Of a stretch of DNA of 53,787 nt, positions 9,932-53,321 are shown in pieces; positions within the stretch are counted from its first letter, which is position 1, and the number at the start of each line of letters is the position of its first letter. The stretch lies in the NCBI GenBank assembly GCA_964540825.1, contig CAZINT010000002.1:194993-248779 (forward strand). The letters run 5' to 3'. This stretch comes from an uncultured Gammaproteobacteria bacterium (GTDB lineage: Bacteria > Patescibacteriota > Patescibacteriia > Magasanikbacterales > GWA2-37-8). Both the position numbers and the translations under genes were made by a program. The notes below the pieces were generated by a model, which saw nothing but the letters and a program-made list of their open reading frames with translations, was not told the DNA's origin and searched no databases.

Positions 9932-9940
9932 AATCACACG

Positions 9941-10000
9941 CTCCAGTAGAAGCTTATACTACTTTTATCACAAAGTAGTATAAGCTTGGGTCTACTGGAG
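9941..10000. repeat. 60-nt near-perfect hairpin (10 + 15 bp stem with a 4-nt bulge)
   Basis: ctccagtaga/agcttatactacttt - tatcac - aaagtagtataagct/tggg/tctactggag. It lies between the host terminator and the 3' end of the islet A ORF. No T-run follows it. Confidence 0.7.
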
Positions 10001-10055
10001 AGTTGACCCGAGCTGTTGATCAGAGCCTCCTGCCACTTCGGAAGTGGCAACAGGT

Positions 10056-10451
10056 CTAGCGGCGAGCGCGGCGGCGGGTACGCGGGAGGGGCGGAGCCGT
10101 CTTCGGCGCGCAGGCCCGGACGGAGAACGCCCCACCGTCCTGCCATTTCGAAGCGACCTCGAGACCGGTGACCTTGAGCTCCGCCTCACGGATAGCAACC
10201 TCGAGCTGCCTTACACGGGCTTTCTCAGCCGAGAGCTCCGTGGCGGCCGCCTCGAGACGCTGCCCGGCCTCACGGACCTGCTTCACCATCGGCACGTACA
10301 CCTGGGTGAAGCCCAGCAGCAGGAGCACGAGAGAGCCGCTGATGCCCAGCGCAATGACGCCAGGCAAAGAGGTCGCCGCCTGACACTCCGGCTGCGAATT
10401 TTTCGGACCATCGAACCAGCTGGCATCCTCTGCGGTTGTTGACTCGGACAT
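10056..10451 (-). CDS. Islet A: small high-GC protein with one TM helix and a coiled-coil segment (hypothetical)
   Basis: I place the start at the internal ATG (complement of 10449-10451), preceded by aaGGAGGttctc. The 131-aa product begins MSESTTAEDASWFDG. It has a TM segment (LPGVIALGISGSLVLLLLGF) and then a heptad-like stretch, AGQRLEAAATELSAEKARVRQLEVAIREAELKV. Third codon positions are GC-rich in this frame. Confidence 0.6.
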   Translation of the reverse strand: MSESTTAEDASWFDGPKNSQPECQAATSLPGVIALGISGSLVLLLLGFTQVYVPMVKQVREAGQRLEAAATELSAEKARVRQLEVAIREAELKVTGLEVASKWQDGGAFSVRACAPKTAPPLPRTRRRARR

Positions 10452-10576
10452 GAGAACCTCCTTCCCCTCTTTAAGGGGGTTGCAGTGGCACACCTTATGG
10501 GCAAGGTGCAAATCATTAAAAATTCACAAGTAAAATTCTTAATGAAAAGCACCTTATTCTAAAAGAACAACGAACA

Positions 10577-10605
10577 AATCTAGCATGATTAAGGTGCGCT
10601 GTCAA
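10577..10605 (-). promoter_or_regulatory. Putative promoter for the islet A gene
   Basis: The minus strand reads TTGACA (complement of 10600-10605), 17 nt spacer, TAGATT (complement of 10577-10582). It lies immediately after the metK terminator and leaves a leader of roughly 120 nt. Confidence 0.5.
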
Positions 10606-10616
10606 GGCTTTTGTGC

Positions 10617-10649
10617 AAAAAACCATCCTCTTAAAAAGAGGATGGTTTT
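10617..10649 (-). terminator. metK terminator
   Basis: aaaaccatcctc-ttaaaaa-gaggatggtttt, with a T-run on the minus strand. Confidence 0.8.
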
Positions 10650-10657
10650 AAAAAAAC

Positions 10658-11806
10658 TTATTTCTTAACTAAGCTCTGCAGCGCCTTGATTTTATCTACC
10701 TTTTCCCAGGGAAATTCCGGGTAGCCGAAATGGCCGTAGGTAGCTGTTGGGCGATAGATAGGGCGCAGGAGTTGCAAGTGTTCAACTATTTTTCCCGGGC
10801 GGAAATCAAACACACGTGTAAGTATGTCGACCAATTTTTCATCACTCACCGTTCCTGTGCCAAAAGTATTAACACTAATGCTGGTCGGTTCGGCTTTTCC
10901 AATACAATACGAAACTTGCACTTCAACTCGCTCAGCGAGTTTCGCCGCGACGATATTTTTAGCTACATACCGGGCCATATATGCGCCCGACCGATCAACT
11001 TTGGAAGCGTCTTTTCCAGAAAAACATCCCCCGCCATGGCGCCCCATACCACCATACGTATCTACGATAACTTTTCGCCCCGTGAGGCCGGCATCGCCGT
11101 GCGGACCGCCCGTTACAAACCGGCCGGTCATATTAATATAAAATTCAGTTTGAGCATCCAGATACTTGGCGCATACAGGTTTAATAACATGCGTAATAAT
11201 ATCTTTTCGTAATCGCGCGAGAGAAACTTTTTCATCATGCTGCACCGACACCACAACATTTTTTAGACGTACCGGTTTGTTATTAACATATTCAACCGCT
11301 ACCTGCGTTTTACCATCGGGACGAAGATATTTTATGATATTTTTCTTGCGAACTTCCGCTAAGCGGCGCGCTAAGGCATGCGCCAAACTGATCGGAAGTG
11401 GCATAAGCTCCGGTGTTTCATTGCTGGCGTAACCGAACATGAGCCCTTGATCCCCTGCGCCTTGCTTTTCAGCACTTCCCCGCGTTACACCCTGATCGAT
11501 ATCAGGCGACTGCTCATGAAGTGTCGACATGATTCCACTATACGCCGCATCGATGCCAAAACAGGACTCGGTATACCCAATATCACGAAGAACGGCGCGG
11601 GCAATTTTTTGGACATCAATTTTAGCGGTTGTCTTAATTTCGCCGCCAATAACTACAAGGCCAGTGGTCGTAAAACATTCAATTCCGGCGTGCGAATTTT
11701 TATCCTGCCGCAGCAGCTCGTCCAAAATTGCATCAGAAATTTGATCACAAATTTTATCAGGGTGGCCTTCGGTTACCGACTCGGAAGTAAAAATAAAATG
11801 AGACAT
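10658..11806 (-). CDS. metK: S-adenosylmethionine synthetase
   Basis: 382 aa from the internal ATG (complement of 11804-11806): [25 protein letters not shown]. It also carries [18 protein letters not shown] and the C-terminal [19 protein letters not shown] motif. The 37-codon upstream extension in the ORF track is not MetK-like. Confidence 0.95.
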
Positions 11807-11810
11807 ACAA

Positions 11811-11845
11811 GTACAAAAAAATAAAACAAGGGCTGTTTTATTTTT
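11811..11845 (-). terminator. Intrinsic terminator inside the metK leader (candidate attenuator)
   Basis: The minus strand reads aaaataaaaca-gccct-tgttttatttt followed by ttt. The stem is a perfect 11 bp. The T-run ends about 10 nt upstream of the metK ATG, so there is no room for a promoter after it. Confidence 0.6.
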
Positions 11846-11981
11846 AGCAAAAGATAGAAGTGGCCGAATGGCCAGAGGAAGTTGTTGAACAATAATTGTT
11901 TGATCGACCACTCGCAAACAATATAATCAGCCAACAACTAACACCATCGTAACGCTAAAAGGCAACAGCATACTTTGCTTG

Positions 11982-12010
11982 AGCATACACCTAAGCACCT
12001 GAAAATGCAA
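11982..12010 (-). promoter_or_regulatory. Putative metK promoter
   Basis: The minus strand reads TTGCAT (complement of 12005-12010), 17 nt spacer, TATGCT (complement of 11982-11987). Confidence 0.5.
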
Positions 12011-12022
12011 GGGTTTCCACGA

Positions 12023-13192
12023 TTAAAAATTCTGAATAAGACTAAGTGCAATTCCTGAAATTGTCAGGAGTATAACCATGAGCGTTAAGAACCAGGCCGG
12101 ATAACGACTTACCGGGCGCTCCCCAAAAATACCCTTTCGCTTAGCTCGCCAGTATACAAGAATCATGATAAAAATTTCAAAAGCTATAAACAAAGCCCCA
12201 ACAACATTTAAAATACTAATAAAATTTCTTAGGCCCGCAATAAAAAGAACTATGGGCACCATAAAAACAAGTCCGCTGCTTATAATAGGACTTATATGAT
12301 TATCCCATAGCAAACTTTCTTTGAGGGCAATACCAAGACCGACAAAACTTGTGGCCATCGCGAACACGGCAAATACATTACTCATAATCATCACCCCCTG
12401 GCCAAAACGAGCGGCTAAAGCAATCGTAGCAACAGGGGTTGTCGCGTTGCCAAGCACCCCGAGCACCCCTGCCGCGAAGAGCATGTATACAATAACGGGA
12501 ATACAACTTCCAATGATGACTGCTCGACGTAACTTTTTAGGATCGTGTTCAAGCAACGCTTTAGCCTCAATGACTGCCGGGCTACCATGGAGCGCAAATA
12601 AAATAATACCGTACGGAAATAAAAGTTGGGCAGTATTGGTATAGAGCCAATTACCAATCTCGACCGAACGAAACAAAAATAATGAAAGTCCGGCAATAAT
12701 CAGAATCACTAAAAAGCTTAAAAATTTTTGCATTTTTTTAGCTGCGCTGAGGCCGCGCCAGATAACTAAGCTGCCTACAAACCAAAAACCAATGCTCCAC
12801 CAAAAAGGTTTGCCGCCGATAAGCGCACCCAGCACATCACCTTCACCAACAATATACGCCAGGAGGGCTCCATAACTACTCAGAACAATGGTAAGCGATA
12901 ACAAATTACCTGCCCATGAACCAATGTATTTTCCGGCCAGTCCGGCGAGCTGAAATCGCTCCGGTGTATTTTCCGCCGTTTCGCTGATCATGAGATTCAG
13001 GCAGAGCATCAAAATACCAAACCCAACCAAATACAGGAGGCCGATTTTCAGACCAACCTGCATAATCGCATACGGAATACCAAGCACACCAGCCCCAATC
13101 GTCATGCCGGTAATTAAAAAAACTCCTTCGGCGACCGAACCTCTAACTTTTACATTATTTTTTTGAAGAGAAAAATTTTTCACGAAGTACAA
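12023..13192 (-). CDS. Amino acid permease (aromatic amino acid/HAAAP-like, about 11 TM)
   Basis: 389 aa. The stretch GMTIGAGVLGIPYAIMQVGLKIG is typical of Trp/Tyr-permease-family transporters, and the protein is hydrophobic throughout. The start is uncertain: TTG at 13192 or GTG at 13183. Confidence 0.7.
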   Translation of the reverse strand: MYFVKNFSLQKNNVKVRGSVAEGVFLITGMTIGAGVLGIPYAIMQVGLKIGLLYLVGFGILMLCLNLMISETAENTPERFQLAGLAGKYIGSWAGNLLSLTIVLSSYGALLAYIVGEGDVLGALIGGKPFWWSIGFWFVGSLVIWRGLSAAKKMQKFLSFLVILIIAGLSLFLFRSVEIGNWLYTNTAQLLFPYGIILFALHGSPAVIEAKALLEHDPKKLRRAVIIGSCIPVIVYMLFAAGVLGVLGNATTPVATIALAARFGQGVMIMSNVFAVFAMATSFVGLGIALKESLLWDNHISPIISSGLVFMVPIVLFIAGLRNFISILNVVGALFIAFEIFIMILVYWRAKRKGIFGERPVSRYPAWFLTLMVILLTISGIALSLIQNF

Positions 13193-13244
13193 TAAATATA
13201 TACCTAGTATAACTTATTTTTACTTTTTATTACAGATTGTTTTA

Positions 13245-13281
13245 TTAAAAAATAGAACGGCGGCCGGTGAACGGCCGCCGT
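13245..13281 (-). terminator. GC-rich terminator of the islet B gene
   Basis: acggcggccg-gtgaa-cggccgccgt, followed on the minus strand by tctatttttt. Confidence 0.7.
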
Positions 13282-13302
13282 AAGGGCGCGAAGTGATGTT
13301 GC

Positions 13303-13887
13303 TCAGGCTGCAGCAGCCGAGCTGGGGATGATGGGCGTATAGCCCGGGTTCCTCCAAGCCACCAAGTTGCCGTAGCTGCTGGCGCGAACAACCTGCGCCT
13401 GCCCGAGCTCAAGCTCGATGTTGTAGCAGACAGCGTGCACGCGCGCTCCGGCTTCACGCGCGTATGTCTCCCACGTGAAGCCATTGGACGTCGTCGTCGA
13501 TGCGTCAAGGAACGAGAACAGTGCACCAGGCTCTGCGACCAGCAGGAGGGACGTCAGTCGGTTGGCGTGAGCGATGCCTCGCACCTGGCTCATGAACTTC
13601 CGGGCCCTCTTCCCCTCGCCAGCGCTCGGAAGACGCGGATAGCGTTGAGAGGTAAAGCCGACCGGGGCGATGCACATGCCCTCCGTCAGGGCTGCTGCGT
13701 CAGGCCGCGCCGTAGCCGATGCCAGGCAGAGGCCCGGCAGGACCAACTGCCGATCCTGGTTGAAGTAACTCCGCAGCCGCTGACCAACCACCTTCGTGTG
13801 GGCTAGCCGCTGCTCCCGGGCGATGCTCCGCGGGAGCGTCGTAAAACAGAGCAGCTGGATCTTCGAGACAGGGGGTAAAGTAGCCAT
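13303..13887 (-). CDS. Islet B: high-GC hypothetical protein, 194 aa
   Basis: The ATG is preceded by aAGGAGttgttc; the ORF-track start is a TTG two codons upstream. The product begins MATLPPVSKIQLLCFTTLPRS. I recognise no signal peptide and no family motif. Third codon positions are GC-rich. Confidence 0.55.
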   Translation of the reverse strand: MATLPPVSKIQLLCFTTLPRSIAREQRLAHTKVVGQRLRSYFNQDRQLVLPGLCLASATARPDAAALTEGMCIAPVGFTSQRYPRLPSAGEGKRARKFMSQVRGIAHANRLTSLLLVAEPGALFSFLDASTTTSNGFTWETYAREAGARVHAVCYNIELELGQAQVVRASSYGNLVAWRNPGYTPIIPSSAAAA

Positions 13888-14052
13888 GAACAACTCCTTG
13901 GCAAAACGATGTACATCCGGGGAACAGAAGGCGCTTAAAAATACATACTATATACTTTCAAGCACCTTCTATTCGCCACACAAAGAACGATTTATTTGGT
14001 GAATAAGTTCGGTACCACTTTTTTACCCCTTCGTCAAGGGTATAAACAAAAA

Positions 14053-14077
14053 AACCGCTTGAATAAGCGATTCTTTA
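14053..14077 (-). terminator. Weak terminator after tRNA-Val(UAC)
   Basis: 5-bp stem cgctt-gaat-aagcg, followed by a 7-nt T-run on the minus strand. Confidence 0.45.
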
Positions 14078-14081
14078 AGTG

Positions 14082-14155
14082 TGGGCACTGAAGGATTCGA
14101 ACCCTCGACCCTCTCGGTGTAAACGAGATGCTCTAACCAACTGAGCTAAGTGCCC
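14082..14155 (-). tRNA. tRNA-Val(UAC): tRNA-Val, anticodon UAC
   Basis: The reverse complement is gggcacttagctcagttggttagagcatctcgtttacaccgagagggtcgagggttcgaatccttcagtgccca. It has the cloverleaf arms, the anticodon loop tttacac, and the T-loop ggttcgaatcc. Confidence 0.9.
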
Positions 14156-16121: not shown

Positions 16122-16202
16122 GACTGAAGTATACCAAAGACTGCATTCAAAGAGAAGTTCATTCGGCTGTGGGCAAAAAAATATTTTGCATACGGCTGAA
16201 CG

Positions 16203-16259
16203 ATCGTCTAGAGCGGCGCCTGCATCCCGAAGGACACTTGCGACACCGCTCTAGACGAT
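16203..16259 (-). terminator. 14-bp inverted repeat 3' of the islet C gene (terminator-like)
   Basis: atcgtctagagcgg - 29 nt - ccgctctagacgat, 13 nt after the stop at 16272. Confidence 0.5.
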
Positions 16260-16271
16260 ACACCACACTTT

Positions 16272-16616
16272 TTACGCCGCCACCTGATCAGGCATCAGCA
16301 GATGGTTCTTCTTACAGAACTCCTCCGCCATGGCCCACCCCATGTCATGTACGATCCGCTCGATCATCTCCCGCACCATCTCCGGTGGAACATTCGGATC
16401 GGGATCTGCGGTCACCCGTTCGAACTCGTCGACCGGGTCGATCGACTGAAGCCGCTGTGGCGTCTCACCCACCGAATCGTCAGTGAACTCTTCGAAACAG
16501 AGGTCGCACGAAGCGGTGTGAGGACCGAACTCACAGACGTGCCGCTTCGGATCAGCACCAACCGGCAGGAACGGGCAGGAGCTGGCGTGGGCAAGGGCCT
16601 TTTCTTTTGCCTTCAT
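16272..16616 (-). CDS. Islet C: small Cys/His-rich high-GC protein, 114 aa (hypothetical, possible metal-binding)
   Basis: The internal ATG (complement of 16614-16616) is preceded by cAGGAGttatgtatc. The product begins MKAKEKALAHASSCPFLPVGADPKRHVCEFGPHTASCDLC, placing Cys at positions 14, 28, 37 and 40 with His at 26 and 33. The C-terminus is acidic. Confidence 0.55.
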   Translation of the reverse strand: MKAKEKALAHASSCPFLPVGADPKRHVCEFGPHTASCDLCFEEFTDDSVGETPQRLQSIDPVDEFERVTADPDPNVPPEMVREMIERIVHDMGWAMAEEFCKKNHLLMPDQVAA

Positions 16617-17028
16617 GATACATAACTCCTGAGCTGTGGAATGTAATGAGGGTAGCGTACTTGCGCACCCTCTCAACTCAATCCACACGTCTGGACTCGG
16701 TCGAAAGGGCGCACAGTTGTAAAGAACTACTCCTAAATAAAATCACCCGCTGCCATGGGCTCGGGTGATTAGGAAAAGCTTTTTTATTTTCTTACTTCAA
16801 GCTTTCGGTATAATCACCCGTTGTCCAAAGATCGCATACAAAAATGCGGGTCATTGGATTGACCTTGGAAAGGTTCTGGCAATTAAAGCTTAAAGTTTGG
16901 TACATATTTTTTTAACTTTTCTAACGTACCAACAGTTTTAATAGGCGTCAAGACAGTTATCCACAGACGATTTGCAGCTGGTAGTACACCAAGAAAATCG
17001 TTATACTATGTATATAGTAATTATTTCT

Positions 17029-17997
17029 ATGTCTGAAAAAATGGGTTCGTGGGCAAAATTGGTAGCAGGAGCCGCGCTCTTCGCTGGCAGTGAACTGCCG
17101 GTACATGCCGAGGAGCCAGAGCAAAAAGCGCCCCTCGCCACACTCGACACTACGGAACCTCTTTCGCTTAAAGAATCTGCCCCGCACGAAGAAAAGCCAG
17201 CCCCACTGACTCCTGAGGAAATTGCCAAAAAAATTATTCAAGATGCTGAAGCGCGCGGTTATATTACTCGCGGAGAACTTACCGGGCGTCTTGTTATTGA
17301 AAAAGGGGGTATTATGGTGGGTTCAAGCGCACCTCCTTTGACTGAAAAACAAAAAATTGCCATCGCCCCACTTCTCAAATTTCAACGCGAAACATGTCTT
17401 ATGATACCGCAAGGCACTATTGAAAGTATGGATGCAGTGGCAAAAAAAATAACTATCAAAACTTTTACCGGACAAATCATAAACTACGAACCAGAAGATC
17501 AGACACTTTTTCGTTACTTCAAACTTGGTGAAAAAATTGGGTATAAAATTTTGTATCGTGGCAGCAAAAGTCTACCTGTTGAGTATATCTGCCAACTTCC
17601 ATTCGTAATCTACACCACCCCTGACGGTAAAACAAAATCAGAAGCGCAATTTAAAAAAGAAAACCAGCCGGCAAAAGCAGTTGCGCAAACCAACGTAAAA
17701 ATCAAAGGAGCGCAAACACCGCAAGCGCCAGATACCCAAGTTTACATTCTTCTGCCTCAAAAAACGAAAGCTCACACCGCTCAGGACGACGAAATGCAAT
17801 CAGCCCTGTGGATGCTCGCTCGTATCGATAACTCAGACCCGACCATTCCCCCGCTTAGACTTTCAGATGCCCTGATCGCCAGCAAAGAACCAAGCAAAGC
17901 CCGACGCGACCCTGGAACACATAAAAATAAACCACTTCCACCTCTGCGCGGCCCCTATGATTGGAAAGCAAAGCCTGGTCCAAAAATCAAAAAATAG
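17029..17997 (+). CDS. Hypothetical secreted protein
   Basis: I chose the start at MSEKMGSWAKLVAGAALFAGSELPVHA, which looks like a signal peptide. The ORF track begins 19 codons upstream. The rest of the protein is K/E/P-rich and matches no family I recognise. Confidence 0.55.
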   Translation: MSEKMGSWAKLVAGAALFAGSELPVHAEEPEQKAPLATLDTTEPLSLKESAPHEEKPAPLTPEEIAKKIIQDAEARGYITRGELTGRLVIEKGGIMVGSSAPPLTEKQKIAIAPLLKFQRETCLMIPQGTIESMDAVAKKITIKTFTGQIINYEPEDQTLFRYFKLGEKIGYKILYRGSKSLPVEYICQLPFVIYTTPDGKTKSEAQFKKENQPAKAVAQTNVKIKGAQTPQAPDTQVYILLPQKTKAHTAQDDEMQSALWMLARIDNSDPTIPPLRLSDALIASKEPSKARRDPGTHKNKPLPPLRGPYDWKAKPGPKIKK

Positions 17998-19389: not shown

Positions 19390-19439
19390 AGGCCTTGAGT
19401 GAGGTTTGAAAGGATCCATTACCTGAGAGGAGGAATCAG

Positions 19440-19883
19440 ATGCTTGTTCCCACCACCCGCATCGCCGGGATCACCGTCCTTTTTGTCCGCGGTCTCGACG
19501 GTATCTCTGCCGGCATGGCCGCAATGATTGGCGACAGTGCCTGGACCCGGGAATGCGGCAAAGCAATCGCCGCGCTGCCGGATGTGAAACGGCCCGTGTC
19601 CTGCTATCTCGGTGGCGGCGAGGATCTCGTCGGTCTGCGCTCTGGCGTCACACGCGCCCTCGAGAATGCCGAGACCTTCAAGGTAAATGCCATCGTCATG
19701 CCGATACCTCGGGATCCTACCCAGTGGGTGCGCGACACCTTCGCGTACATTGTTGAGGCAATCCGGCAGCACGCCGATCGCTTCCAGCGCGAGGGCCACG
19801 TAGGCCTCATCACCATCGTGTTCCCGACCAGCACCCACCCAAAGACGCTCAGCGATCTCGCCTTCCTCGCGAATCCGCGCTGA
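19440..19883 (+). CDS. Islet D: high-GC hypothetical protein, 147 aa
   Basis: GAGAGGAGGaatcag precedes the ATG. In my read-through about 80% of third codon positions in this frame are G or C. No family was recognised. The antisense 158-aa ORF lacks any start signal. Confidence 0.6.
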   Translation: MLVPTTRIAGITVLFVRGLDGISAGMAAMIGDSAWTRECGKAIAALPDVKRPVSCYLGGGEDLVGLRSGVTRALENAETFKVNAIVMPIPRDPTQWVRDTFAYIVEAIRQHADRFQREGHVGLITIVFPTSTHPKTLSDLAFLANPR

Positions 19884-19894
19884 GAAATCAACCA

Positions 19895-19928
19895 CGTCGT
19901 CGGCTGCGCATCCGTGCAGCCGACGACG
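19895..19928 (+). terminator. GC-rich hairpin 3' of the islet D gene
   Basis: cgtcgtcggctgc-gcatccgt-gcagccgacgacg, a 13-bp stem, 12 nt after the stop codon. Confidence 0.6.
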
Positions 19929-19931
19929 ACC

Positions 19932-19967
19932 AAAAAAATATCCCGATACTCTATCGGGATATTTTTT
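19932..19967. terminator. Bidirectional A/T-flanked terminator between convergent genes
   Basis: aaaaaatatcccgata-ctc-tatcgggatatttttt. Confidence 0.8.
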
Positions 19968-23620: not shown

Positions 23621-23740
23621 AAAGCATTCTCTGCTTTGGTAACAATGATTGCTGACAAAGTAGAAACGAAGACAGACGCGCCGCATACTTTGCCTTCCCC
23701 TGGTGGGAAGAAGTAGCGGCTGCTGTCTTCGGTGATGCGC

Positions 23741-24139
23741 CTAGTGGCGCCGGGGGTGGTAGCAGACCATCGTAGTCACGATCCCCATGAAGTACGACTC
23801 GAAGGTCCAGTAGCCGGCATCGCTGTTGGTCACCGCCTTCGACATGAAAGCGAGCGTTGGCCCCATATCACTCACGATTTTGCAGCCGCCGCGGGTGTAG
23901 CGGATGTCCATCACGAAGTGGTAAGCAGCCACCTCCTTGGGAGCAGACTCGGGATAGCACCAGCGCCAGCCGTCCACCCACCCGATACGTTCCTGCTCGC
24001 TGGCGCAGGAACCTGTGTCACCCGGGTCGGGCAGCGCAGAGGGCGGCGGTTCGTCGGTTGCCGGGAAATCCGCCTCCGTGCAGGATGCAGAGCCCAGTAG
24101 CAGGGCCGACAGTGTCACACAGGACAAATACCTTGTCAT
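23741..24139 (-). CDS. Islet E1: small high-GC secreted protein/lipoprotein, 132 aa
   Basis: The internal ATG (complement of 24137-24139) is preceded by aAAGGAGctctgc. The signal is MTRYLSCVTLSALLLGSASC, a non-canonical lipobox. A Pro-rich linker follows, and the mature part contains further Cys residues. Confidence 0.6.
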   Translation of the reverse strand: MTRYLSCVTLSALLLGSASCTEADFPATDEPPPSALPDPGDTGSCASEQERIGWVDGWRWCYPESAPKEVAAYHFVMDIRYTRGGCKIVSDMGPTLAFMSKAVTNSDAGYWTFESYFMGIVTTMVCYHPRRH

Positions 24140-24206
24140 GCAGAGCTCCTTTTTGAGGTCATGATTCTTACCCACCATCCTCACGCACATGCTTGAAGAA
24201 TGAAGC

Positions 24207-24235
24207 ATTCTGTCACAAAAAACTATTTCTGTCAA
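24207..24235 (-). promoter_or_regulatory. Putative promoter of E1
   Basis: The minus strand reads TTGACA (complement of 24230-24235), 17 nt spacer, CAGAAT. It sits back to back with the E2 promoter. Confidence 0.45.
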
Positions 24236-24245: not shown

Positions 24246-24274
24246 TTGACAAATCGCTTTTAAAGAGATTAAAC
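24246..24274 (+). promoter_or_regulatory. Putative promoter of E2
   Basis: TTGACA (24246-24251), 17 nt spacer, TTAAAC. Confidence 0.45.
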
Positions 24275-24298
24275 TGCGGAGTATGAGGGGTGCGATCG

Positions 24299-24670
24299 AT
24301 GTCAAAATTACTGGTTATTAGTTCAGGGGCAATGATCGAACAGCGTGAAAACTTCGCGATGCAGCTTCGTAAGCGCGGCTACCACACAATTACCACGCAG
24401 CAAGAAGCCCCAGGTGTTCTGATGAGGCCTACCGACCTCATTATCCTTATGACCGCAACCTACGAGGAGACGGAGAATCTTCTCAAGAAAAGCAGCCACC
24501 ATGCCAAACCGATCTTGATCTGGTGTGAAGGTGCGTTTCCGGCGCGCGACGCCGAACTTCTTACCCGTCAGTATGTTCAGATCAAAGGCATACTCAGCGG
24601 CGAGCGCTTTCCTAAAACCGAGGAAGATTTACTCGTCAGTCTCAGACGGGCTATGCACTTTCTTTTCTGA
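24299..24670 (+). CDS. Islet E2: stand-alone CheY-like pseudo-receiver, 123 aa
   Basis: The ATG at 24299 lies 8 nt after GAGGGG. The beta-alpha pattern is KLLVISSG / TDLIILMT / KPILIWCEG. The usual N-terminal DD pair is absent. It is paralogous to 25526-25921. Confidence 0.55.
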   Translation: MSKLLVISSGAMIEQRENFAMQLRKRGYHTITTQQEAPGVLMRPTDLIILMTATYEETENLLKKSSHHAKPILIWCEGAFPARDAELLTRQYVQIKGILSGERFPKTEEDLLVSLRRAMHFLF

Positions 24671-24836: not shown

Positions 24837-24884
24837 GCTTCACCCTTAGCGCAATGCGTTATTGCAGTAATGGTGAAATGAGGT

Positions 24885-24918
24885 GGAGGGGTGCATGCTT
24901 ATATGGCAGCACCCCTCC
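24885..24918 (-). terminator. GC-rich hairpin 3' of E3
   Basis: ggaggggtgc - 14 nt - gcacccctcc, 8 nt from the stop at 24926. Confidence 0.55.
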
Positions 24919-24925
24919 ATACCTC

Positions 24926-25333
24926 TTAGTCAACAGGCAGCCAGTTGCTCGCCAAGGAGGCGTTGCGGGCTCCTGTGCCGGCGAGCTGGCAGCAATAGAC
25001 CTGGCCATGAGGAAGGTCGACAGAAACCGACCCAGACGACCGGGGAGGATCCGTCGAGTTAACGGCTGGCACGACCACAGCCCCTCCATTCTTATCGCTA
25101 TCCTTCACACAGCGAACATCGCCCCGGACCAGCTGATCGTTGCCGATACCCCAGTGAAGCGTTTGCGAGCCGCGGGGCGAACCGAGCTCGCGGGTGAGCG
25201 TGACGGCAGCGACCTGCCAACGATCAGGAACACAAGCGGGCGAAGAAACTGTACTATCCGCCACCTCCCCACCACAACCAACCACAGCCAAAATGCCTAC
25301 CCCAAAACACCGGTTGAATAGCGTCTTGCTCAT
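24926..25333 (-). CDS. Islet E3: small high-GC lipoprotein, 135 aa
   Basis: The internal ATG is preceded by GGAGGGAgtgtatcgt. The signal MSKTLFNRCFGVGILAVVGC contains a VVGC lipobox. The mature part has several Cys residues. Confidence 0.6.
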   Translation of the reverse strand: MSKTLFNRCFGVGILAVVGCGGEVADSTVSSPACVPDRWQVAAVTLTRELGSPRGSQTLHWGIGNDQLVRGDVRCVKDSDKNGGAVVVPAVNSTDPPRSSGSVSVDLPHGQVYCCQLAGTGARNASLASNWLPVD

Positions 25334-25525: not shown

Positions 25526-25921
25526 ATGGAACACATACTCCTCGTGATTGATCAACGAGTCGATCGCCTGAGCGCCACGGTAGAAGCTTTGCGCAGGGCG
25601 GGAATCAACGCCAGCGGCGAACCTACCCTGCCAGCTCAAAAACCTCAGGGAGTTAATGTAGGCATTCTGTGCCTTGCCACTATTGTTGGGATGGAGATCT
25701 TGCTCGAACAGATGCGAGCGTGGGGCTGTAAAGTCATTATCTGGTGCGATCGTCTGCCGCCTGACAAAAGGCTTCGCGGCTTGGTCATCGCCAGCATTTT
25801 CAACAAGAACCAAGGTCTTGTTATTGATGTCTTGGGACCGATCCCCACGTCTTCTCAGGGTGTGCTGAGCGCCTACCAAGAGGCACTGCTGAACCTCGAT
25901 CTTCCTGACGAATCAAGCTGA
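25526..25921 (+). CDS. Islet E4: stand-alone CheY-like pseudo-receiver, 131 aa
   Basis: tGGAGcaaaa precedes the ATG. The pattern is HILLVIDQ / VGILCLAT / CKVIIWCDR. It aligns with E2 over its whole length, by eye. Confidence 0.55.
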   Translation: MEHILLVIDQRVDRLSATVEALRRAGINASGEPTLPAQKPQGVNVGILCLATIVGMEILLEQMRAWGCKVIIWCDRLPPDKRLRGLVIASIFNKNQGLVIDVLGPIPTSSQGVLSAYQEALLNLDLPDESS

Positions 25922-35365: not shown

Positions 35366-35400
35366 AGGTACTAATTTAGTAAGAATTGGTAAAAGCTAGT

Positions 35401-35874: not shown

Positions 35875-35885
35875 AGGCCGAGGAA

Positions 35886-46013: not shown

Positions 46014-46039
46014 AAAACTTTGATTTTAAATAAATAGAA

Positions 46040-48061
46040 CTACGGAGTTGCCTTTAAATATTGTATACACTGGGCCTGATTGGCAACATTTGGAACCACA
46101 ACACCGTTACAACAGAACGCTCCGCCGCTAACTGCGTCTACTGGACAGCAATTTTTTCCGTCTGCGCTGCAAAGGGATGATTCTTGCAAACGTTTATTTA
46201 CTTCGCTTGCTCCGCCTGGACCTTTCCCTGGAAAAAAACAATTATAGTGGACATCCTGAATCGCTGATGTCAGAACCGGGTAAAAATTAGCACCTTCTTT
46301 AGCTGGGAACGGGCAGTGGGTCAGCGTGGTAAGTGTCGTGTTATTTGCATTAAAATTCAATCGTGGTGTACGGCACAGCGGTTCACTATTAGGAAGCGAC
46401 TGCTGCAAATCAATACCGTACATCGGTTCGACTTGCATACGCTTGCTAAACAGCATGGTTACATCATCCTTGGGGGCTACAAACTCAGCATTTAATCCCG
46501 GCGTAACCTGTATAAGGTACGGAGCAGTATTATCAATCTCATCTTTAATGGTGAAAGCCCACGAATAGTTATCTGGTTTATTTTGATCAGTAAAAATTTC
46601 ACCTGTAGTAGGTGCTGCGTCAACTTTATTATTTTGGTTAGCATCAAGAGCATTACCCGAAACATCCATTGCCCCCGAGAAAGGAATTGATTCAAATGAC
46701 GATGCACTAAAGGTGCGGCCGGCTTTTACCAGCACGGAATAGGCGTCTTGTTTACAAGTTGGATCAGTAACTTTATCGCAAACCGGCAGACAATAGATGG
46801 CCTGACCACACGCATTACGACCACATTCTTTGGTAGAGGTAAATTCAAGCGTGCGGTATCCGTTTGTCAGGTTGAATGTTCCTACCGGAACACTGCTTTT
46901 ATTGCTTTTTAAGAAAATCGTATTGCCATCAAGCGCATAAGTGACTGCTCCGTCACGGAACGTACCCTGAATAGCCGTCGGATCCATGGCTTTGTTAAAA
47001 TCAATTTGAATAACACTATTCTTTGTCTCAACACTGCTATCTGCCGGAAAAACACTCTTTACAATTGGCGGCGTGGTATCAAGCTCAGTACTACACGTAA
47101 ACTCCCACTCATAATAATTTTTGCCGAGACTGCTTACTTGAAAAGCCGAAGGGTTATTATTAGCAGCATCATCGAGCAAAACAGCTGGACCCAAGTGAAC
47201 TTTGTAGGTAATTTTGTCCTGGCTTGAACCGAGATAGTCATAAGGCCTGATGACTATAGTATACGCTTTATCATTCTGGTACGTGGCGAGAACTGCCGCA
47301 CCTGTAATTGCTGCACCAGTATCGGCGCGGGTAATAGCAATATGATCAGCGTCCAGCGTGAGCGCGTCACAATCTGTTTTCCAATTCATGTTAACACCAA
47401 TATTAATGCAGTCGCCAAAAACCTCTTTACCAGCAGCGTCTTTGCTTTGATTGGTGTTTTTAACAAAACTATCGACTTTGATGGCTTTGCGGAACGTAAT
47501 AATGATTTTAGAATTTCGCGCTACACTTACCTGGTCGCGCGTTGGGTAATGATCTTTAATAATACCCCCAAGCGCTCCGCTGCCAGTAAAGTTTTGTGTA
47601 CCCGTGCCGTTTACCCCGCCAAGGTCTCCCCCGCCCGAACCCTGACCAACACCAATGGCGCGCAGGACAAAAGTAACAATAGCGTAAGCACTAAGAATAA
47701 TGATAAGACCGATAACCGCGTTGCGCAAAATAGTTTTAGCTTGAGCGACCTGTTCATCGTTGCCTCCGGCAGTCATGTACAAATAACCGCCGTACAAAAC
47801 AAGCCCGAGCAAAATAATTCCCAAAAGCCCCAGCGCAACCTTAATAATTGTAGCGATAATCTGGCGAATATCAGTTGCCGCAAGGCCGGATGGCTGCTGC
47901 ACAACTGCGATGCCCGTATCAATTGGCGCTTCAGGCTGAGCAGTAGTTTGGGCGAGCGCTGGAGTTAGTTTTAAAAACGAAAAAACTGCCACTAACAGTA
48001 CCCCCAGGACCGTGGCAGTTTTTCGAAGTGTCATGTTATTTTGTTTAATCCATTGAAGCAT
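46040..48061 (-). CDS. 673-aa surface protein with a VirB2/TrbC-like pilin N-terminus, Ig-like domains and a Cys-rich C-terminus
   Basis: The N-terminus is paralogous to that of the giant protein: GLAATDIRQIIATIIKVALGLLGIILLGLVLYGGYLYMTAGGNDEQVAQAKTILRNAVIGLIIILSAYAIVTFV. The start may instead be the M at codon 10. Confidence 0.75.
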   Translation of the reverse strand: MLQWIKQNNMTLRKTATVLGVLLVAVFSFLKLTPALAQTTAQPEAPIDTGIAVVQQPSGLAATDIRQIIATIIKVALGLLGIILLGLVLYGGYLYMTAGGNDEQVAQAKTILRNAVIGLIIILSAYAIVTFVLRAIGVGQGSGGGDLGGVNGTGTQNFTGSGALGGIIKDHYPTRDQVSVARNSKIIITFRKAIKVDSFVKNTNQSKDAAGKEVFGDCINIGVNMNWKTDCDALTLDADHIAITRADTGAAITGAAVLATYQNDKAYTIVIRPYDYLGSSQDKITYKVHLGPAVLLDDAANNNPSAFQVSSLGKNYYEWEFTCSTELDTTPPIVKSVFPADSSVETKNSVIQIDFNKAMDPTAIQGTFRDGAVTYALDGNTIFLKSNKSSVPVGTFNLTNGYRTLEFTSTKECGRNACGQAIYCLPVCDKVTDPTCKQDAYSVLVKAGRTFSASSFESIPFSGAMDVSGNALDANQNNKVDAAPTTGEIFTDQNKPDNYSWAFTIKDEIDNTAPYLIQVTPGLNAEFVAPKDDVTMLFSKRMQVEPMYGIDLQQSLPNSEPLCRTPRLNFNANNTTLTTLTHCPFPAKEGANFYPVLTSAIQDVHYNCFFPGKGPGGASEVNKRLQESSLCSADGKNCCPVDAVSGGAFCCNGVVVPNVANQAQCIQYLKATP

Positions 48062-50530: not shown

Positions 50531-50554
50531 AAGACAGAAGCATGCTTCTGTCTT
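50531..50554 (-). terminator. Hairpin after the tRNA pair
   Basis: aagacagaagc-at-gcttctgtctt, with flanking A and T runs. Confidence 0.55.
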
Positions 50555-50560
50555 TTACTG

Positions 50561-50634
50561 TGGGCGTGCCTGGAATCGAACCGGGGACCTCGTCATTATC
50601 AGTGACGCGCTCTAACCATCTGAGCTACACGCCC
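50561..50634 (-). tRNA. tRNA-Ile(GAU): tRNA-Ile, anticodon GAU
   Basis: The reverse complement is gggcgtgtagctcagatggttagagcgcgtcactgataatgacgaggtccccggttcgattccaggcacgccca. The anticodon loop is ctgataa. Confidence 0.9.
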
Positions 50635-50648
50635 GTAAGTGGGCCACG

Positions 50649-50722
50649 TGGGCAATACAGGATTCGAACCTGTGACCTTTACAATGTCAATGTAACGCTC
50701 TAACCAACTGAGCTAATTGCCC
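50649..50722 (-). tRNA. tRNA-Val(GAC): tRNA-Val, anticodon GAC
   Basis: The reverse complement is gggcaattagctcagttggttagagcgttacattgacattgtaaaggtcacaggttcgaatcctgtattgccca. The anticodon loop is ttgacat. Confidence 0.9.
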
Positions 50723-50824
50723 AAAATTCTACCGTATTTTTTTAACAAAGGCAAGTATAGCAAATGGATTAAAAAAAGCAAGTGATTCTATCCGCTTGCT
50801 CTAAGGGGTTTGGTGGGGAGGACT

Positions 50825-50858
50825 GGACACCGGCAGCAGGGGTTTGCTGCCGGTGTCC
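50825..50858 (-). terminator. GC-rich hairpin 3' of the islet F1 gene
   Basis: ggacaccggcagc-aggggttt-gctgccggtgtcc, a 13-bp stem, 28 nt from the stop at 50886. Confidence 0.6.
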
Positions 50859-50885
50859 GAGGAGGAAAGGAGGGATGGGTGACGC

Positions 50886-52046
50886 TCAGCCGTTGACCGC
50901 CGTCGCTGCAGTCGAGCTGCGGCGCAGACGCTTGAGCTGCGCGATGATGCGACCAGCGAAATCAGGAAGGTATGGAATCATCACCGCGAGCAGCACCACG
51001 AGCGAACCCGCGATGACCTTCCACTCAGGCCAATTGAGGCCGAAGTAGAGGATCACCGGGATAGGCCCGATGAGTGAGGCGACGATGCCCTGACCCTTGG
51101 TCATGACCATGCGCGCCTTCATGGAGGCGGGCTGATCTTCGCCTGGCAGACGATAGTCAGACACCATGATCATGACGGCGAAATAGCTCATGAGACCGAA
51201 CGGAATGCCCGAGAGGAAAACCCAAGGCGCGAAGTAGAGGTACTGGGCCTGACCCCAAGCATACGCATAGAGCGCCGCGAAGCCAGAACAGATGACGCCG
51301 ACACAAAGCATGCAGGCCAGCTGTTCGAGGGCGAACCACCACTTTTCAGCGATGGCGCTGAAGACCTTGGCCTCATCGGTGGTGAGCCGCAGCTCTTCGA
51401 TGAGACGATTGATCAGCACTCGATAGCGACCGGCCAGATATTGACGCCGAGCGTAGGAGCCGGCGTAGATGAAGGCGCAGACGAGCACGGTGAGCATGCC
51501 CATACGGCTCGAATGCTTACTAAGGTCGAGCTTACCCCAAACGATCAAGCCGATCCCAATGATGGCAACACGCAGCGCCCAGGTGTCGAGCTGGCGCTTC
51601 GTAGGATCGGGCGCTTTCTTGAGCCCAGCCTTGACGAGAATGTTGTCGACCAAGGCCGAGAACTGCAGCGCAAGGCCCTTGAGGAGGCCCGAACCAGCCG
51701 TGACCGCCCAACCGGTGTTGGTGTACACAGCATTGGACGAGCCGACCACGACGCCGGTGTGCAGCCCACTCTCTACGATGAGGTGTGCTGGCATAACAGC
51801 GTTGATCTGGCGGATCTCGCTGCGGTGCCGCCGAAAGTAGCGAACCACAATTCCCGCAGCGATGATTCCGGCAGACAAACTAGCGCTGATACTGGTGTTC
51901 AGGAAGACGGTCGCCTGCTGAACACCGGCAACTTTCTTCCAGTACTCGATGAGGGCCATGAAGGCCCCATAGAAGAAGAGGCCTGCCCCGAAAAGGAACC
52001 AGACCTTCGCCACGTTGAGACCGTTCTTGAGCTCAAACTTGGTCAT
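50886..52046 (-). CDS. Islet F1: high-GC polytopic membrane protein, 386 aa (hypothetical)
   Basis: The internal ATG (complement of 52044-52046) is preceded by cGGGAGcgtgac. The product begins MTKFELKNGLNVAKVWFLFGAGLFFYGAF and has about 9-10 hydrophobic segments. The 612-aa ORF-track version runs through the promoter region and antisense into the HAD gene. Confidence 0.6.
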   Translation of the reverse strand: MTKFELKNGLNVAKVWFLFGAGLFFYGAFMALIEYWKKVAGVQQATVFLNTSISASLSAGIIAAGIVVRYFRRHRSEIRQINAVMPAHLIVESGLHTGVVVGSSNAVYTNTGWAVTAGSGLLKGLALQFSALVDNILVKAGLKKAPDPTKRQLDTWALRVAIIGIGLIVWGKLDLSKHSSRMGMLTVLVCAFIYAGSYARRQYLAGRYRVLINRLIEELRLTTDEAKVFSAIAEKWWFALEQLACMLCVGVICSGFAALYAYAWGQAQYLYFAPWVFLSGIPFGLMSYFAVMIMVSDYRLPGEDQPASMKARMVMTKGQGIVASLIGPIPVILYFGLNWPEWKVIAGSLVVLLAVMIPYLPDFAGRIIAQLKRLRRSSTAATAVNG

Positions 52047-52116
52047 GTCACGCTCCCGTTTTTGTGTTCTTTTAGACCCAAACCGCTCGGGCCAACAATT
52101 CTGCAAAAATAAAAAA

Positions 52117-52182
52117 GTTCTTTCACAATCGCAATAATCTTCGCAAAAAATTGGCTCGATAGTTGGGCGGTTGTGAAAGAAC
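52117..52182. promoter_or_regulatory. 12-bp perfect inverted repeat in the F1/F2 divergent intergenic region
   Basis: gttctttcacaa (52117-52128) - 42 nt - ttgtgaaagaac (52171-52182). Confidence 0.5.
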
Positions 52183-52231
52183 CGTTCAATTGCCCCCACC
52201 CTACCATATTTTTCGAAAAAAATCAAGGGTG

Positions 52232-52259
52232 TTGACAAATGGGGAAAAACTGTTATCGT
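52232..52259 (+). promoter_or_regulatory. Putative promoter of the HAD gene
   Basis: TTGACA (52232-52237), 16 nt spacer, TATCGT. Confidence 0.45.
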
Positions 52260-52295
52260 GCGCATAAGAAAATAATCGTTCATTGAGGGCAAAAA

Positions 52296-53177
52296 ATGAA
52301 GGAAACAACACAAAAAACCATCTTGTTCAGCGACTTCGATGGCACGCTCGAAACCGACCTTCACACCGACCCGGCTACGCTCGACCCGTTTAGCCTGGAG
52401 TTTGGACGTCTTTTTAGCGCTCTTACCGAAGGTAAAATGAGCGTTGAAAGCGTCCATGCTTACATGCTCGAAGGCTATGGACGAATTCGGCGAGCACCTC
52501 AGTTGTACGGCTGGGTGCGCGGCGCCGAGGAAATGGTTGTGGCTTCGGCGTCTGACGCCTATCTTAGAGCGGCGGTCATGGGCGCCGAGATGCTCGACCG
52601 GCTTAATTTGCTGCGCAACCCAACCGATCGCGGTGACGCTTTGCACCAGGTGTACAAAGCTGCCTACCCCTTCGCACAATGCGCACTGCGCCCCGAAGCA
52701 CCCGGTGCCCTCAACAGGCTGCACCAGGCAGGCGTATTCGTCGAGGTGGTCACGAACGCAGACCCAAAAAAAGTGCGCGACAAAATCGCTGCTGCGAATC
52801 AGGGTCTCGGACCGCTTTCACTGGACTGGATCCTGCACCATGTGCACGGGTTCGCCAACAAGAGCGTTGTCACCCAGCACCCTCTGATCGCGCCTGAGAC
52901 GATCAAAAATCCCCACCTTAGCCGGCCTATCTACACCCGCCGAGGACACCTCTTTGAGCTGCTTGAGAGTCTTTGCTCCGAGGAGGACGATCTGTATTTC
53001 CTCGGCGACAACGCCGACATGGACCTGCACGGCCCCGGTGTCAGGTATCCGAACGCCAAGCTCATCCTCGTTGCGAACGATGATACCCCAAACTATGATC
53101 TTCGCTACTTCGCGACTACCCGGAACTGCTTTGTCATCCGGTCGCTGGCGGAGCTGCCTCGCATTCTCGGTGTCTGA
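52296..53177 (+). CDS. Islet F2: high-GC HAD-superfamily hydrolase-like protein, 293 aa
   Basis: Motif I: ILFSDFDGTLE (DxDxT). Motif II-like: VEVVTNA. Motif IV-like: LGDNADMD. A large insert between motifs I and II could be a cap domain. tGAGGGcaaaaa precedes the ATG. Confidence 0.65.
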   Translation: MKETTQKTILFSDFDGTLETDLHTDPATLDPFSLEFGRLFSALTEGKMSVESVHAYMLEGYGRIRRAPQLYGWVRGAEEMVVASASDAYLRAAVMGAEMLDRLNLLRNPTDRGDALHQVYKAAYPFAQCALRPEAPGALNRLHQAGVFVEVVTNADPKKVRDKIAAANQGLGPLSLDWILHHVHGFANKSVVTQHPLIAPETIKNPHLSRPIYTRRGHLFELLESLCSEEDDLYFLGDNADMDLHGPGVRYPNAKLILVANDDTPNYDLRYFATTRNCFVIRSLAELPRILGV

Positions 53178-53321
53178 CCCTCTTGCCTCTCCACGGGACG
53201 CGCAGCCCTCCGGCTGCCGCCCCTTCTCCCCTGCTTCTAAATTAGTTGGAACTAGAGGAAATGTTAGGGGTTTGACAAATAAATCTAGAAAAGTATTAAG
53301 AAATACACTATACTATAAGCA

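Follow-up and report, generated by a model that had tools for sequence, protein, structure and literature searches.

Single-gene cassettes of persistently raised GC content occupy fixed slots in a lineage related to Candidatus Magasanikiibacteriota

Introduction

Genes of deviant base composition are routinely taken as recent horizontal transfers, and the pipelines that call genomic islands and horizontal gene transfer in the candidate phyla radiation (CPR, or Patescibacteria) rely on such readings. Does this reading hold for a 53,787-nt stretch of DNA from contig CAZINT010000002.1 (assembly GCA_964540825.1)? This stretch, hereafter referred to as the window, carries ten genes rich in guanine and cytosine (GC), which form six islets (A to F) in gaps between housekeeping genes of moderate GC content. 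A first-pass annotation, made from the sequence alone, took the islets as piecemeal acquisitions from a high-GC donor, possibly the host of an episymbiotic cell, and offered an undescribed dispersed accessory gene set as its fallback. We describe here the anatomy of the islets, the conservation of their slots, the orthology of their genes, and the persistence of their high GC content in relatives; neither a donor nor mobility machinery was seen. On balance, we lean towards the view that the islets are old, lineage-restricted cassettes, each with a gene-specific high-GC steady state, and that GC-biased fixation via recombination is the likeliest force behind it.

Base composition of the islets

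The whole window has a GC content of 46.5%. Merging of 100-bp windows with a GC fraction of at least 0.58 yielded eight segments, which are located at positions 9974-10472 (63.7%), 13238-13909 (62.4%), 16187-16641 (57.8%), 19412-19959 (60.9%), 23651-24153 (60.8%), 24871-25305 (60.5%), 50774-52012 (59.3%), and 52328-53278 (58.4%) of the window and correspond to the six islets. The islet cores drawn by the first-pass annotation agree with these segments within about 30 bp, and its four spot counts were exact upon recounting (28/60, 27/60, 40/60, and 48/60). Its figure of 67-80% GC applies to single 60-bp lines only, as whole islets typically have 58-67%, and the E and F blocks, although indeed made of GC-rich genes, are not continuous but interrupted by AT-rich promoter gaps of 35-43% GC.

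The 400-bp windows of the backbone have a mean GC fraction of 0.454 ± 0.035 with a maximum of 0.545. The coding sequences (CDSs) of the islets lie 3.4-6.0 standard deviations (sd) above this mean, with the exceptions of E2 (1.5 sd) and E4 (2.3 sd). Per gene, the GC content of the islet genes ranges from 51 to 67%, and E2 and E4 are at the lower end with 51-54%. The separation is complete at third codon positions: the GC content at these positions (GC3) is 0.409 ± 0.034 for backbone genes (n = 28; maximum 0.475) and 0.575-0.789 for the islet genes, so that all ten are above the backbone maximum. The GC3 excess amounts to 17-38 points in the window and up to about 45 points in relatives. By the same criterion, the window has 0.149 islets per kb, compared with a median density of 0 in a set of 75 loci (8 kb or longer, mainly from unrelated bacteria).

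The codon shift affects every codon family, with C- and G-ending codons alike, and the GC content at first (GC1) and second (GC2) codon positions is raised too. In the two-fold pyrimidine boxes, C-ending codons are strongly favoured (TTC 0.79, ATC 0.74, CAC 0.81), and third positions are depleted in both A and T. The order GC3 > GC1 > GC2 is seen in eight of the ten called frames, while E3 and E4 have GC1 slightly over GC3. The levels are family-specific and kept, with GC3 of 0.72-0.76 in the D family and 0.57-0.69 in the E2/E4 family. The GC-rich third positions and stop-poor shadow frames of the first-pass annotation were recovered as well, the long antisense open reading frames (ORFs) being mirror images of the called ones.

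Structure of the cassettes

Each islet gene is monocistronic and consists of an AT-rich leader with a promoter, a Shine-Dalgarno sequence (SD), one ORF, and its own GC-rich 3' hairpin. SD, start codon, and terminator were found for all ten genes. The purine-rich SD is 6-10 nt ahead of the start codon, and the hairpin lies about 10-60 nt beyond the stop codon. The start codons are ATG, except that E2 begins either with GTG at 24290 or with ATG at 24299; with this proviso, the SD-ATG-hairpin layout proposed earlier is correct. The leaders and promoters have 35-42% GC, similar to the backbone spacers (28-42%). Hence, the GC step comprises the CDS and 50-80 nt of 3' hairpin, and it is abrupt: it begins at the start codon in all ten genes, and at the 3' end of B a span of 60 bp takes the GC content from 63.5% down to 13.8%. 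Islet genes end in GC-rich terminator hairpins, whereas the terminators of the backbone are AT-rich. Backbone-style promoters had been proposed for A, E1, E2, E4, F1, and F2. TTGACA-type sites were confirmed for A, E1, and E2 as consensus matches, and a TTGACA is also present inside the block between F1 and F2. By such consensus matches, the islet genes have a promoter and a terminator of their own, as phage morons do.

None of the islets in the window has direct repeats, terminal inverted repeats, an integrase, or a transposase at its borders, as had been claimed, and tRNA genes adjoin B and F only, also as claimed. None of the islet ORFs matched a Pfam family above threshold. An inspection of 18.6 kb of islets from seven genomes revealed no common recombination-site motif, attC-like repeat, hairpin core, enriched 8-mer, or motif resembling an uptake sequence. 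A transposon or integron reading was rejected, as there are no bracketing repeats, shared hairpin core, or enriched 8-mer. The description of the islets as autonomous, natively promoted orphan accessory genes in housekeeping gaps is upheld.

Coding capacity and assembly integrity

The islets are real, protein-coding, and autonomous. Their location in otherwise intergenic positions, their high GC content, and the long open frames on both strands would also fit GC-rich structured non-coding RNAs with incidental ORFs. However, Rfam recognized only the three tRNAs of the window at the gathering threshold and gave no match at E ≤ 1 across A to E; codon periodicity is frame-specific; and relatives of the islets are recognizable at the protein level only, with motifs kept (the Cys/His motif of C, the 'IWC' motif of E2/E4, and the HAD motifs of F2). 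F1 has a dN/dS (ratio of nonsynonymous to synonymous divergence) of 0.10 relative to strain L086, and the antisense ORF of D is absent from the sister species L096. The RNA explanation, which was rejected for want of an Rfam match in the islets, is thereby left with a very small probability. The absence of this antisense ORF from L096 also led to the rejection of dual coding.

Chimeric joining of foreign high-GC reads into a CPR contig, or a binning error, is still less probable. The source is metagenomic, and the F region is found only in short contigs in per-run assemblies. Nevertheless, the junctions, at which the first-pass annotation had asked for chimerism to be excluded, are reproduced by independent assemblies of two runs: the Logan contigs L081, L087, and L088 are 100% or 99.995% identical to the window across the islet borders where compared, and L092 and L093 carry the exact F1 and F2 proteins. 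A strain from a third run (L085, 96.7% identical) has the same B-permease-metK-A layout. Moreover, four further genomes, obtained in separate studies, are likewise GC-rich at these slots, and a native-looking promoter abuts every islet.

Homologues in the same slots of sister species

The backbone of the window is cellular, encoding FtsA, FtsZ, MetK, SHMT, PK, HisRS, LepB, and tRNAs. The nearest MetK in the genome collection (72% identity) is from the Ca. Magasanikiibacteriota metagenome-assembled genome (MAG) nzgw350, followed by those of other Patescibacteria, and this MAG is collinear with positions 1415-23586 of the window. A metagenome scan with the glycosyltransferase yielded just three short contigs, none of which extends into the islets. 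Cluster look-ups of this protein gave access to 21-kb loci of three sister species, namely L094 (GCA_964510495.1), L096 (JGI 3300045379), and L099 (GCA_964634875.1), all collinear with the window from FtsA to MetK. Their backbone proteins are 56-99% identical to those of the window, and the backbone synonymous divergence (dS) ranges from 0.8 to over 4, that is, at or near saturation. The window and its three sister species have small genes in the same gaps, and the GC3 of these genes is 0.56-0.81, compared with 0.33-0.51 for the backbone. These slots are SHMT/NUDIX to ELP3, GT2 to GT1, GT1 to EamA, GH to permease, and the position after MetK.

Eight of the ten window genes (B, C, D, E1, E2, E4, F1, and F2) have recognizable homologues with 25-71% amino acid identity, and for seven of them (all but F1) the homologue is in the same slot or gene pair. 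Specifically, B has its same-slot homologue in L094 (36%, E 1e-32), C in L096 (L096_C, 31%), and D in L096 (L096_D, 52%, E 4e-52) with a further member in L094 (25%); E1 and E2 have theirs in L094 (69% and 60%, respectively), and E4 in L096 (L096_E, 50%) and L099 (L099_Ea, 35%). Two further C members, L094_C and L099_C119, join the family via L096_C (38% and 27%) and are 25% and 31% identical to the window protein. L096_E also joins E2 and E4 as paralogues (E 5e-7). Given this link, the E region of the window probably arose by duplication and subsequent divergence of a pair comprising a lipoprotein gene and an E2/E4-family gene, although no similarity is detectable between E1 and E3.

The slot genes diverge fast and remain GC-rich. 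Their nonsynonymous divergence (dN) is 0.21-0.71, compared with a backbone median of about 0.09. Identity at fourfold degenerate sites is near the expectation for saturation in B, E2, E4, F2, and F1 (for F1, window versus nzgw350 contig L090). A GC content at fourfold sites (GC4) of 0.56-0.89 is retained in B, E2, F1, and F2, and the E4 relatives have only 0.46-0.47. Slots may also be empty: the A slot is a gap of 57-70 bp in L002 and L096, the B slot a gap of 123-302 bp in L020 and L096, and the D slot a gap of 59 bp in L099 and 58 bp in nzgw350 (L001).

An islet of this kind was also seen in another CPR class. In L020, a member of Parcubacteria with 36% GC and a backbone GC3 of 0.19-0.30, a 105-aa gene with two transmembrane (TM) segments and a GC3 of 0.72 directly follows metK (11200-11700) and has its own SD and promoter-like site. 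This hints that the GC-biased process may reach other CPR classes.

Allele replacement and possible signs of recombination

At the F locus, F1 of the window is 94% identical to that of strain L086 (dS 0.29); for F2, the identity is no more than 42%. In nucleotide sequence, the F2 promoter and 3' flank are 82-91% identical while F2 itself is swapped for alleles of 42-53% identity, and other strains have F2 alleles of 42-45% identity between conserved flanks. Between the divergent F1 and F2 genes lies a 44-nt promoter/operator block (52197..52240, plus strand), which contains TTGACA and a TTTTTCGAAAAA palindrome (…TTTTTCGAAAAAAATCAAGGGTGTTGACAAAT). This block is almost invariant in the window, L086, L089, and L091, and the proteins on its flanks are 25-45% identical. 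At this locus, non-coding DNA is far better conserved than coding DNA in the comparison of L086, L089, L091, L092, and L093.

When 1.84 billion representative proteins were searched exhaustively with HMMER, only four relatives of F1 came up, and the two that were traced are both in CPR-like contexts. The relative in nzgw350 is 71% identical, adjoins ELP3, and has a GC3 of 0.91 versus about 0.52 for its backbone. The relative in L091 is 26% identical with a GC3 of 0.83, and it is divergently paired with an F2 homologue (33%, GC3 0.65). That pair is followed by an acidic-protein gene with a GC3 of 0.35, and this acidic protein also follows an F2 allele in L089. Overall, the F1 relatives have GC3 of 0.78-0.91. 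In the nzgw350 contig L090, a 2.3-kb stretch without a called gene (5374-7692) extends from an HD-domain gene to a 565-aa orphan.

Possible signs of recombination were seen elsewhere too. Divergence between L085 and positions 9638-14135 of the window is 5.5% in metK, 2.1% in the permease gene, 1.5% in islet A, 0.3% in islet B, and 0% in the spacer between B and its tRNA gene; such a mosaic suggests recent recombination tracts. A and B have dS of 0-0.02, compared with 0.15 for the flanking metK and 0.07 for the permease gene. D is closer to L096 than to the nearer relative L094, and hence its family is incongruent with the backbone. Strain pairs within sister species are 99.9-100% identical.

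Searches for a donor or a vehicle

All ten islet proteins are present in a collection of 15 billion proteins. Exact look-up there, with clusters at 90% identity and E2 queried from its 24299 start, found the clusters of nine genes. They have one to three members each, which come from the source assembly and from Logan run assemblies, and all the members traced are on window-like contigs. In a word-indexed search of 5.8 billion clusters, B was represented by its own 99% cluster alone, and F2 returned its own kin only; this type of search misses relatives around 35% identity, as the F2 homologues of L086 and L091 were not returned. Taken together, the large-database searches gave no homologue outside CPR-like contexts for F1, B, or F2. 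No match was found by tblastn of A to E against phages and plasmids, by scans of IMG/VR with F1 and the E2/E4 and D families, or in PHROG, where no islet protein matched below E 0.01.

Explanations for the high GC content

The composition and codon use of the islets resemble those of a genome with 60-65% GC, A, B, and D are missing in some relatives, A and E3 are orphans even there, and tRNA genes lie beside B and F. All this would suit genes that were recently imported one by one from a donor of high GC content, such as the host, and captured by native promoters. In relatives, however, seven genes (B, C, D, E1, E2, E4, and F2) have GC3-raised homologues in the same slot or pair, with silent divergence largely or fully saturated, and F1 has an equally GC-rich relative of 71% identity at another locus in nzgw350. 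GC-rich copies that have persisted to such divergence within backbones of GC3 about 0.25-0.52 are not the signature of a donor before amelioration. A single ancient import does not explain the islets either: according to our own calculation with an exponential amelioration model, a GC3 of 0.95 would drop to near 0.57 after about one substitution per silent site against a background of 0.41. The 15-billion collection, which includes same-run assemblies, holds no protein of at least 90% identity beyond the source and Logan assemblies, F1, F2, and B have no non-CPR homologues, and integrase and direct or inverted repeats are absent. Finally, the step coincides with the start codon behind a backbone-like leader in every case, which ten illegitimate insertions would not produce. 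The donor proposed in the first-pass annotation is thus contradicted for B, C, D, E1, E2, E4, F1, and F2, and we regard recent import as improbable in general; the fallback offered there is close to the evidence and essentially right. A different kind of transfer would be repeated reseeding of the slots from an unsampled GC-rich reservoir, such as a CPR plasmid or phage or GC-rich CPR lineages, leaving no time for amelioration. The swaps of F2 alleles between conserved flanks, the other locus of F1 in nzgw350, and the incongruence of D speak for it, as do an islet GC3 of about 0.7-0.9 whatever the backbone GC and GC-rich terminators unlike those of the backbone. But no such reservoir was seen: every traced contig for F1, F2, and the slot families has low-GC CPR neighbours, the families searched have no IMG/VR, phage, or plasmid match, and there is no shared recombination site or k-mer. 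In addition, homologous replacement would require backbone-like flanks in the reservoir. We consider reseeding unlikely, albeit clearly less so than recent import.

Since the composition of silent sites reflects how mutation and fixation are balanced, the islet ORFs must be under a G/C-favouring force that affects neither the backbone nor their own promoters. This force might be selection on the coding part of the mRNA, through translation kinetics, stability, A/U-directed RNases, or nonsense robustness, acting on old resident genes. The GC step comprises ORF and hairpin and spares the transcribed AT-rich leader, C-ending codons are preferred in the pyrimidine boxes, and the GC3 level is family-specific and conserved, all of which would be expected from mRNA-level selection. 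On the other hand, the rise in G-ending codons equals that in C-ending ones and extends to GC1 and GC2, which looks like a general bias at the DNA level; GC3 is normal in other backbone genes for membrane or secreted proteins. Codon use is backbone-like in the S16 ribosomal protein gene of nzgw350, a small sample of one gene (NNC 0.31 versus 0.90 in the F1 homologue), and translational optimality is weakened by it. We deem mRNA-level selection slightly less probable than reseeding and rank it second among the forces that may act on resident genes. The remaining candidate, GC-biased fixation linked to recombination, is the most plausible one by exclusion. It is favoured by the replacement of F2 alleles, the incongruent D, and the low dS of A and B. 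Recombining bacterial genes also show higher GC3 irrespective of codon optimality (PMC4450053).

According to the explanation we favour, a clade related to Ca. Magasanikiibacteriota would carry cassettes in a few fixed slots, each self-contained with a sigma-70-type promoter, an SD, one ORF, and a GC-rich hairpin. The slot genes would outpace the backbone several-fold in their evolution, undergo duplication (E1/E2 to E3/E4), and be lost or replaced (A, B, D, and the F2 alleles). A G/C-favouring force would act on ORFs and 3' hairpins and not on promoters; its likeliest, if unproven, form would be a GC-biased fixation that accompanies unusually frequent homologous recombination or replacement of alleles at the slots, akin to GC-biased gene conversion (gBGC). 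Most of the products are envelope or small soluble proteins. Lipoproteins, TM proteins, and secreted proteins are frequent among them, which suggests that they may be host or phage interface proteins engaged in an arms race. A previously undescribed, locally acting GC-biased process confined to monocistronic cassettes, through recombination or conversion hotspots or through targeted diversification, is conceivable, at a rather low probability. It would keep a dispersed set of fast-evolving interface genes at a GC3 excess of 17-45 points over the rest of the genome, and for a time exceeding that needed for saturation of silent sites.

Several points weigh against recombination-linked fixation in old resident genes. 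The evidence for recombination is anecdotal: a single swap of alleles, an incongruent family, and low dS in two genes. A conversion bias ought not to end at the start codon and would need constraint on the promoters. To our knowledge, gBGC in bacteria has not been described with an effect as large as 20-45 GC3 points over about 400 bp, and this is why the force is reached by exclusion. D and E1 are only partly saturated at fourfold sites (identity 0.49-0.53 versus 0.35 expected). No relatives were found for A and E3, which is compatible with a recent gain of these two, and the F1 homologue of nzgw350 lies at a locus other than that of F1 in the window, which indicates some movement. The orphan gene at 16972-17997 has normal GC and evolves as fast as the islet genes (dN 0.41); rapid evolution alone is therefore not linked to high GC. 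Lastly, the homologue search in large databases covered three genes, F1 exhaustively and B and F2 by word index.

Whatever the force, it is a mistake to read the deviation as recent transfer for at least eight of these ten genes, and pipelines that do so would report too much transfer, and possibly too many 'host-derived' genes, in episymbionts. With a force linked to recombination, the islets would represent an unusually strong and sharply localized GC-biased fixation in bacteria; with selection on mRNA, they would point to a distinct expression regime for envelope or interface proteins of organisms that are not yet culturable. An effect this large and this sharply bounded is not known to have been described. 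The slots mark the fastest-changing surface and small-protein repertoire of the clade, and determinants of host specificity would most likely be found there.

Comparison with known systems

Anatomically, the cassettes come closest to the morons of HK97/HK022-type phages (Cumby, Davidson & Maxwell 2012; PMC3594210), which are additional genes that bring along a promoter and a terminator and deviate in GC content. Like morons, the cassettes sit between neighbours that are adjacent in relatives. Unlike morons, they reside on a cellular chromosome, have no PHROG match, and, for A to E, no match in phage databases; they are also conserved in position and GC-rich at saturated divergence, while the GC of morons is read as recent transfer. 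The cellular backbone and the persistent GC deviation therefore place the cassettes outside the morons. Genomic islets and islands share with them the deviant composition, the orphan cargo, patchy slots, and, in two cases, the adjacency to tRNA genes. In contrast, the window has no integrase, insertion sequence (IS) element, direct repeat, or donor homologue, and most of its islet genes have same-slot orthologues; only A and E3 are absent from the sister loci, as a genomic islet would be. The direction of the deviation differs as well, the window genes being GC-richer than the genome: Daubin and Ochman are said to have found in 2004 that acquired genes and ORFans in bacteria are usually AT-richer.

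The hypothesis of gBGC in bacteria (Lassalle et al. 2015; PMC4450053) likewise involves an enrichment of GC-ending codons independent of codon optimality in genes with signs of recombination, but in the window the effect is confined to sharp-edged units of 0.35-1.2 kb and reaches 17-38 GC3 points. Integron cassettes resemble the islets: both are compact units with a single ORF, mostly of orphan type, and an imperfect inverted repeat follows each unit. The window units, by contrast, are dispersed, have promoters of their own, lack intI, and show no attC-like core in their 3' hairpins. For diversity-generating retroelements (DGRs), no template or variable repeats were found in or near the islets, without a dedicated search of the whole window for reverse transcriptase. 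Adenine-specific, DGR-like mutagenesis was rejected because A and T are both depleted.

Individual islet genes

The islet A gene (10056..10451, minus strand; GC 66.7%, GC3 0.78) encodes a 131-aa protein with an N-terminal TM helix at residues 25-43, a coiled coil, and a basic tail. GGAGG precedes its ATG by 6 nt, and its promoter-like site (10577..10605, minus strand) reads TTGACA-17-TAGATT with an extended TG and lies within a leader of 38% GC. Its 3' region (9938..10054, minus strand) contains a hairpin at 10026-10054 and a composite 29-bp hairpin at 9938-10003. The gene is also present on the independent contigs L081 (100% identical) and L085 (97% at the amino acid level), and no homologue was found in sister species. 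Positions 9974-10055, on the 3' side of A, are the most diverged stretch (11%) compared with strain L085.

The B gene (13303..13887, minus strand; GC 64.1%, GC3 0.76) encodes a soluble orphan of 194 aa, and its terminator (13257..13281, minus strand) has a 10-bp stem with nine G-C pairs, followed by a T-run. The C gene (16272..16616, minus strand; GC3 0.71) encodes an acidic protein of 114 aa. The C family conserves an H-x3-C...C-x2-C motif, through which the protein probably binds zinc. The 3' hairpin of C (16203..16259, minus strand) has perfect arms of 14 bp. Beside the C slot, a secreted orphan is found at 16972-17997 of the window, at 13196-14062 of L094, and at 13316-14188 of L096, with 47-55% identity and a GC3 of 0.37-0.43.

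The D gene (19440..19883, plus strand; GC3 0.75) encodes a 147-aa protein with a predicted alternating beta/alpha fold. A profile of the D family matched weakly to the macro domain of macroH2A.2 (E 0.008), and D possibly adopts an ADP-ribose-binding fold. The AlphaFold2 model of D has a predicted local distance difference test (pLDDT) score of 53 and matched no fold in the PDB, and is not usable. The hairpin of D (19895-19928, plus strand; 13 bp with 10 G-C) is followed by an AT-rich bidirectional terminator (19933-19967) common to D and the glycosyltransferase gene.

In islet E, the E1 gene (23741..24139, minus strand; GC3 0.79) encodes a 132-aa protein with a signal peptide and a lipobox-like Cys, and its promoter (24207-24235) reads TTGACA-17-CAGAAT. 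The E2 gene (24290..24670, plus strand; GC3 0.575), with its promoter at 24246-24275, encodes an alpha/beta protein of 123-126 aa with an 'IWC' motif. The E3 gene (24926..25333, minus strand; GC 60%, GC3 0.625) encodes a 135-aa lipoprotein with the lipobox VVGC. No homologue of E3 was found in relatives, and cross-frame tblastx revealed no hidden relatives of either A or E3. The E4 gene (25526..25921, plus strand; GC3 0.576) encodes a 131-aa member of the E2/E4 family.

The F1 gene (50886..52046, minus strand; GC3 0.755) encodes a polytopic membrane protein of 386 aa with at least seven TM helices, and the 612-aa ORF of the mechanical list over-extends its true start. Its 3' hairpin (50825..50858, minus strand) has perfect arms of 14 bp. 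The F2 gene (52296..53177, plus strand; GC3 0.667) encodes a protein of 293 aa resembling the HAD superfamily. The superfamily motifs I (DxDxT), II (T/S), III (K), and IV (GDxxxD), including the stretches DxDxT, VVTNA, and GDNADMD, are kept in the closest alleles, and motif I is also found in the distant L091 copy. The match of F2 to the Pfam HAD family is weak, with a score of 23.6 below the gathering cut-off of 26.4, and its AlphaFold2 model (pLDDT 39) is not usable. Sequence and profile searches of Pfam, NCBIfam, PHROG, PADLOC, and PDB with the islet proteins and their relatives assigned no family; the only profile matches were weak ones, namely HAD (F2), macro domain (D), claudin-like (F1), and a few scattered matches at E > 0.01.

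Other observations

Three further features are worth recording. The JGI contig L098 (positions 1-1992, compared with L096 at 7404) is 100% identical to L096 across ELP3-MT-GT2 and then continues into a different context with TP_methylase and other genes. The switch occurs exactly at the edge of the E slot and is either a structural variant or an assembly chimera. The pyruvate kinase of the window (27425-28837) is 59-74% identical to those of L094, L096, and L099, unusually divergent for a housekeeping gene, and it has 353-362 aa in two sister species versus 470 aa in the window. Finally, an ORF of 3375 aa (35886-46013, minus strand) is flanked on one side by the genes for two small TSP3-repeat proteins (34553-35365 and 35401-35874) and on the other by that for a 673-aa protein with T4SS-pilin (type IV secretion system) and Big_5 domains (46040-48061). 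The block from 34553 to 48061 looks like a set of cell-surface or pilus-associated genes.

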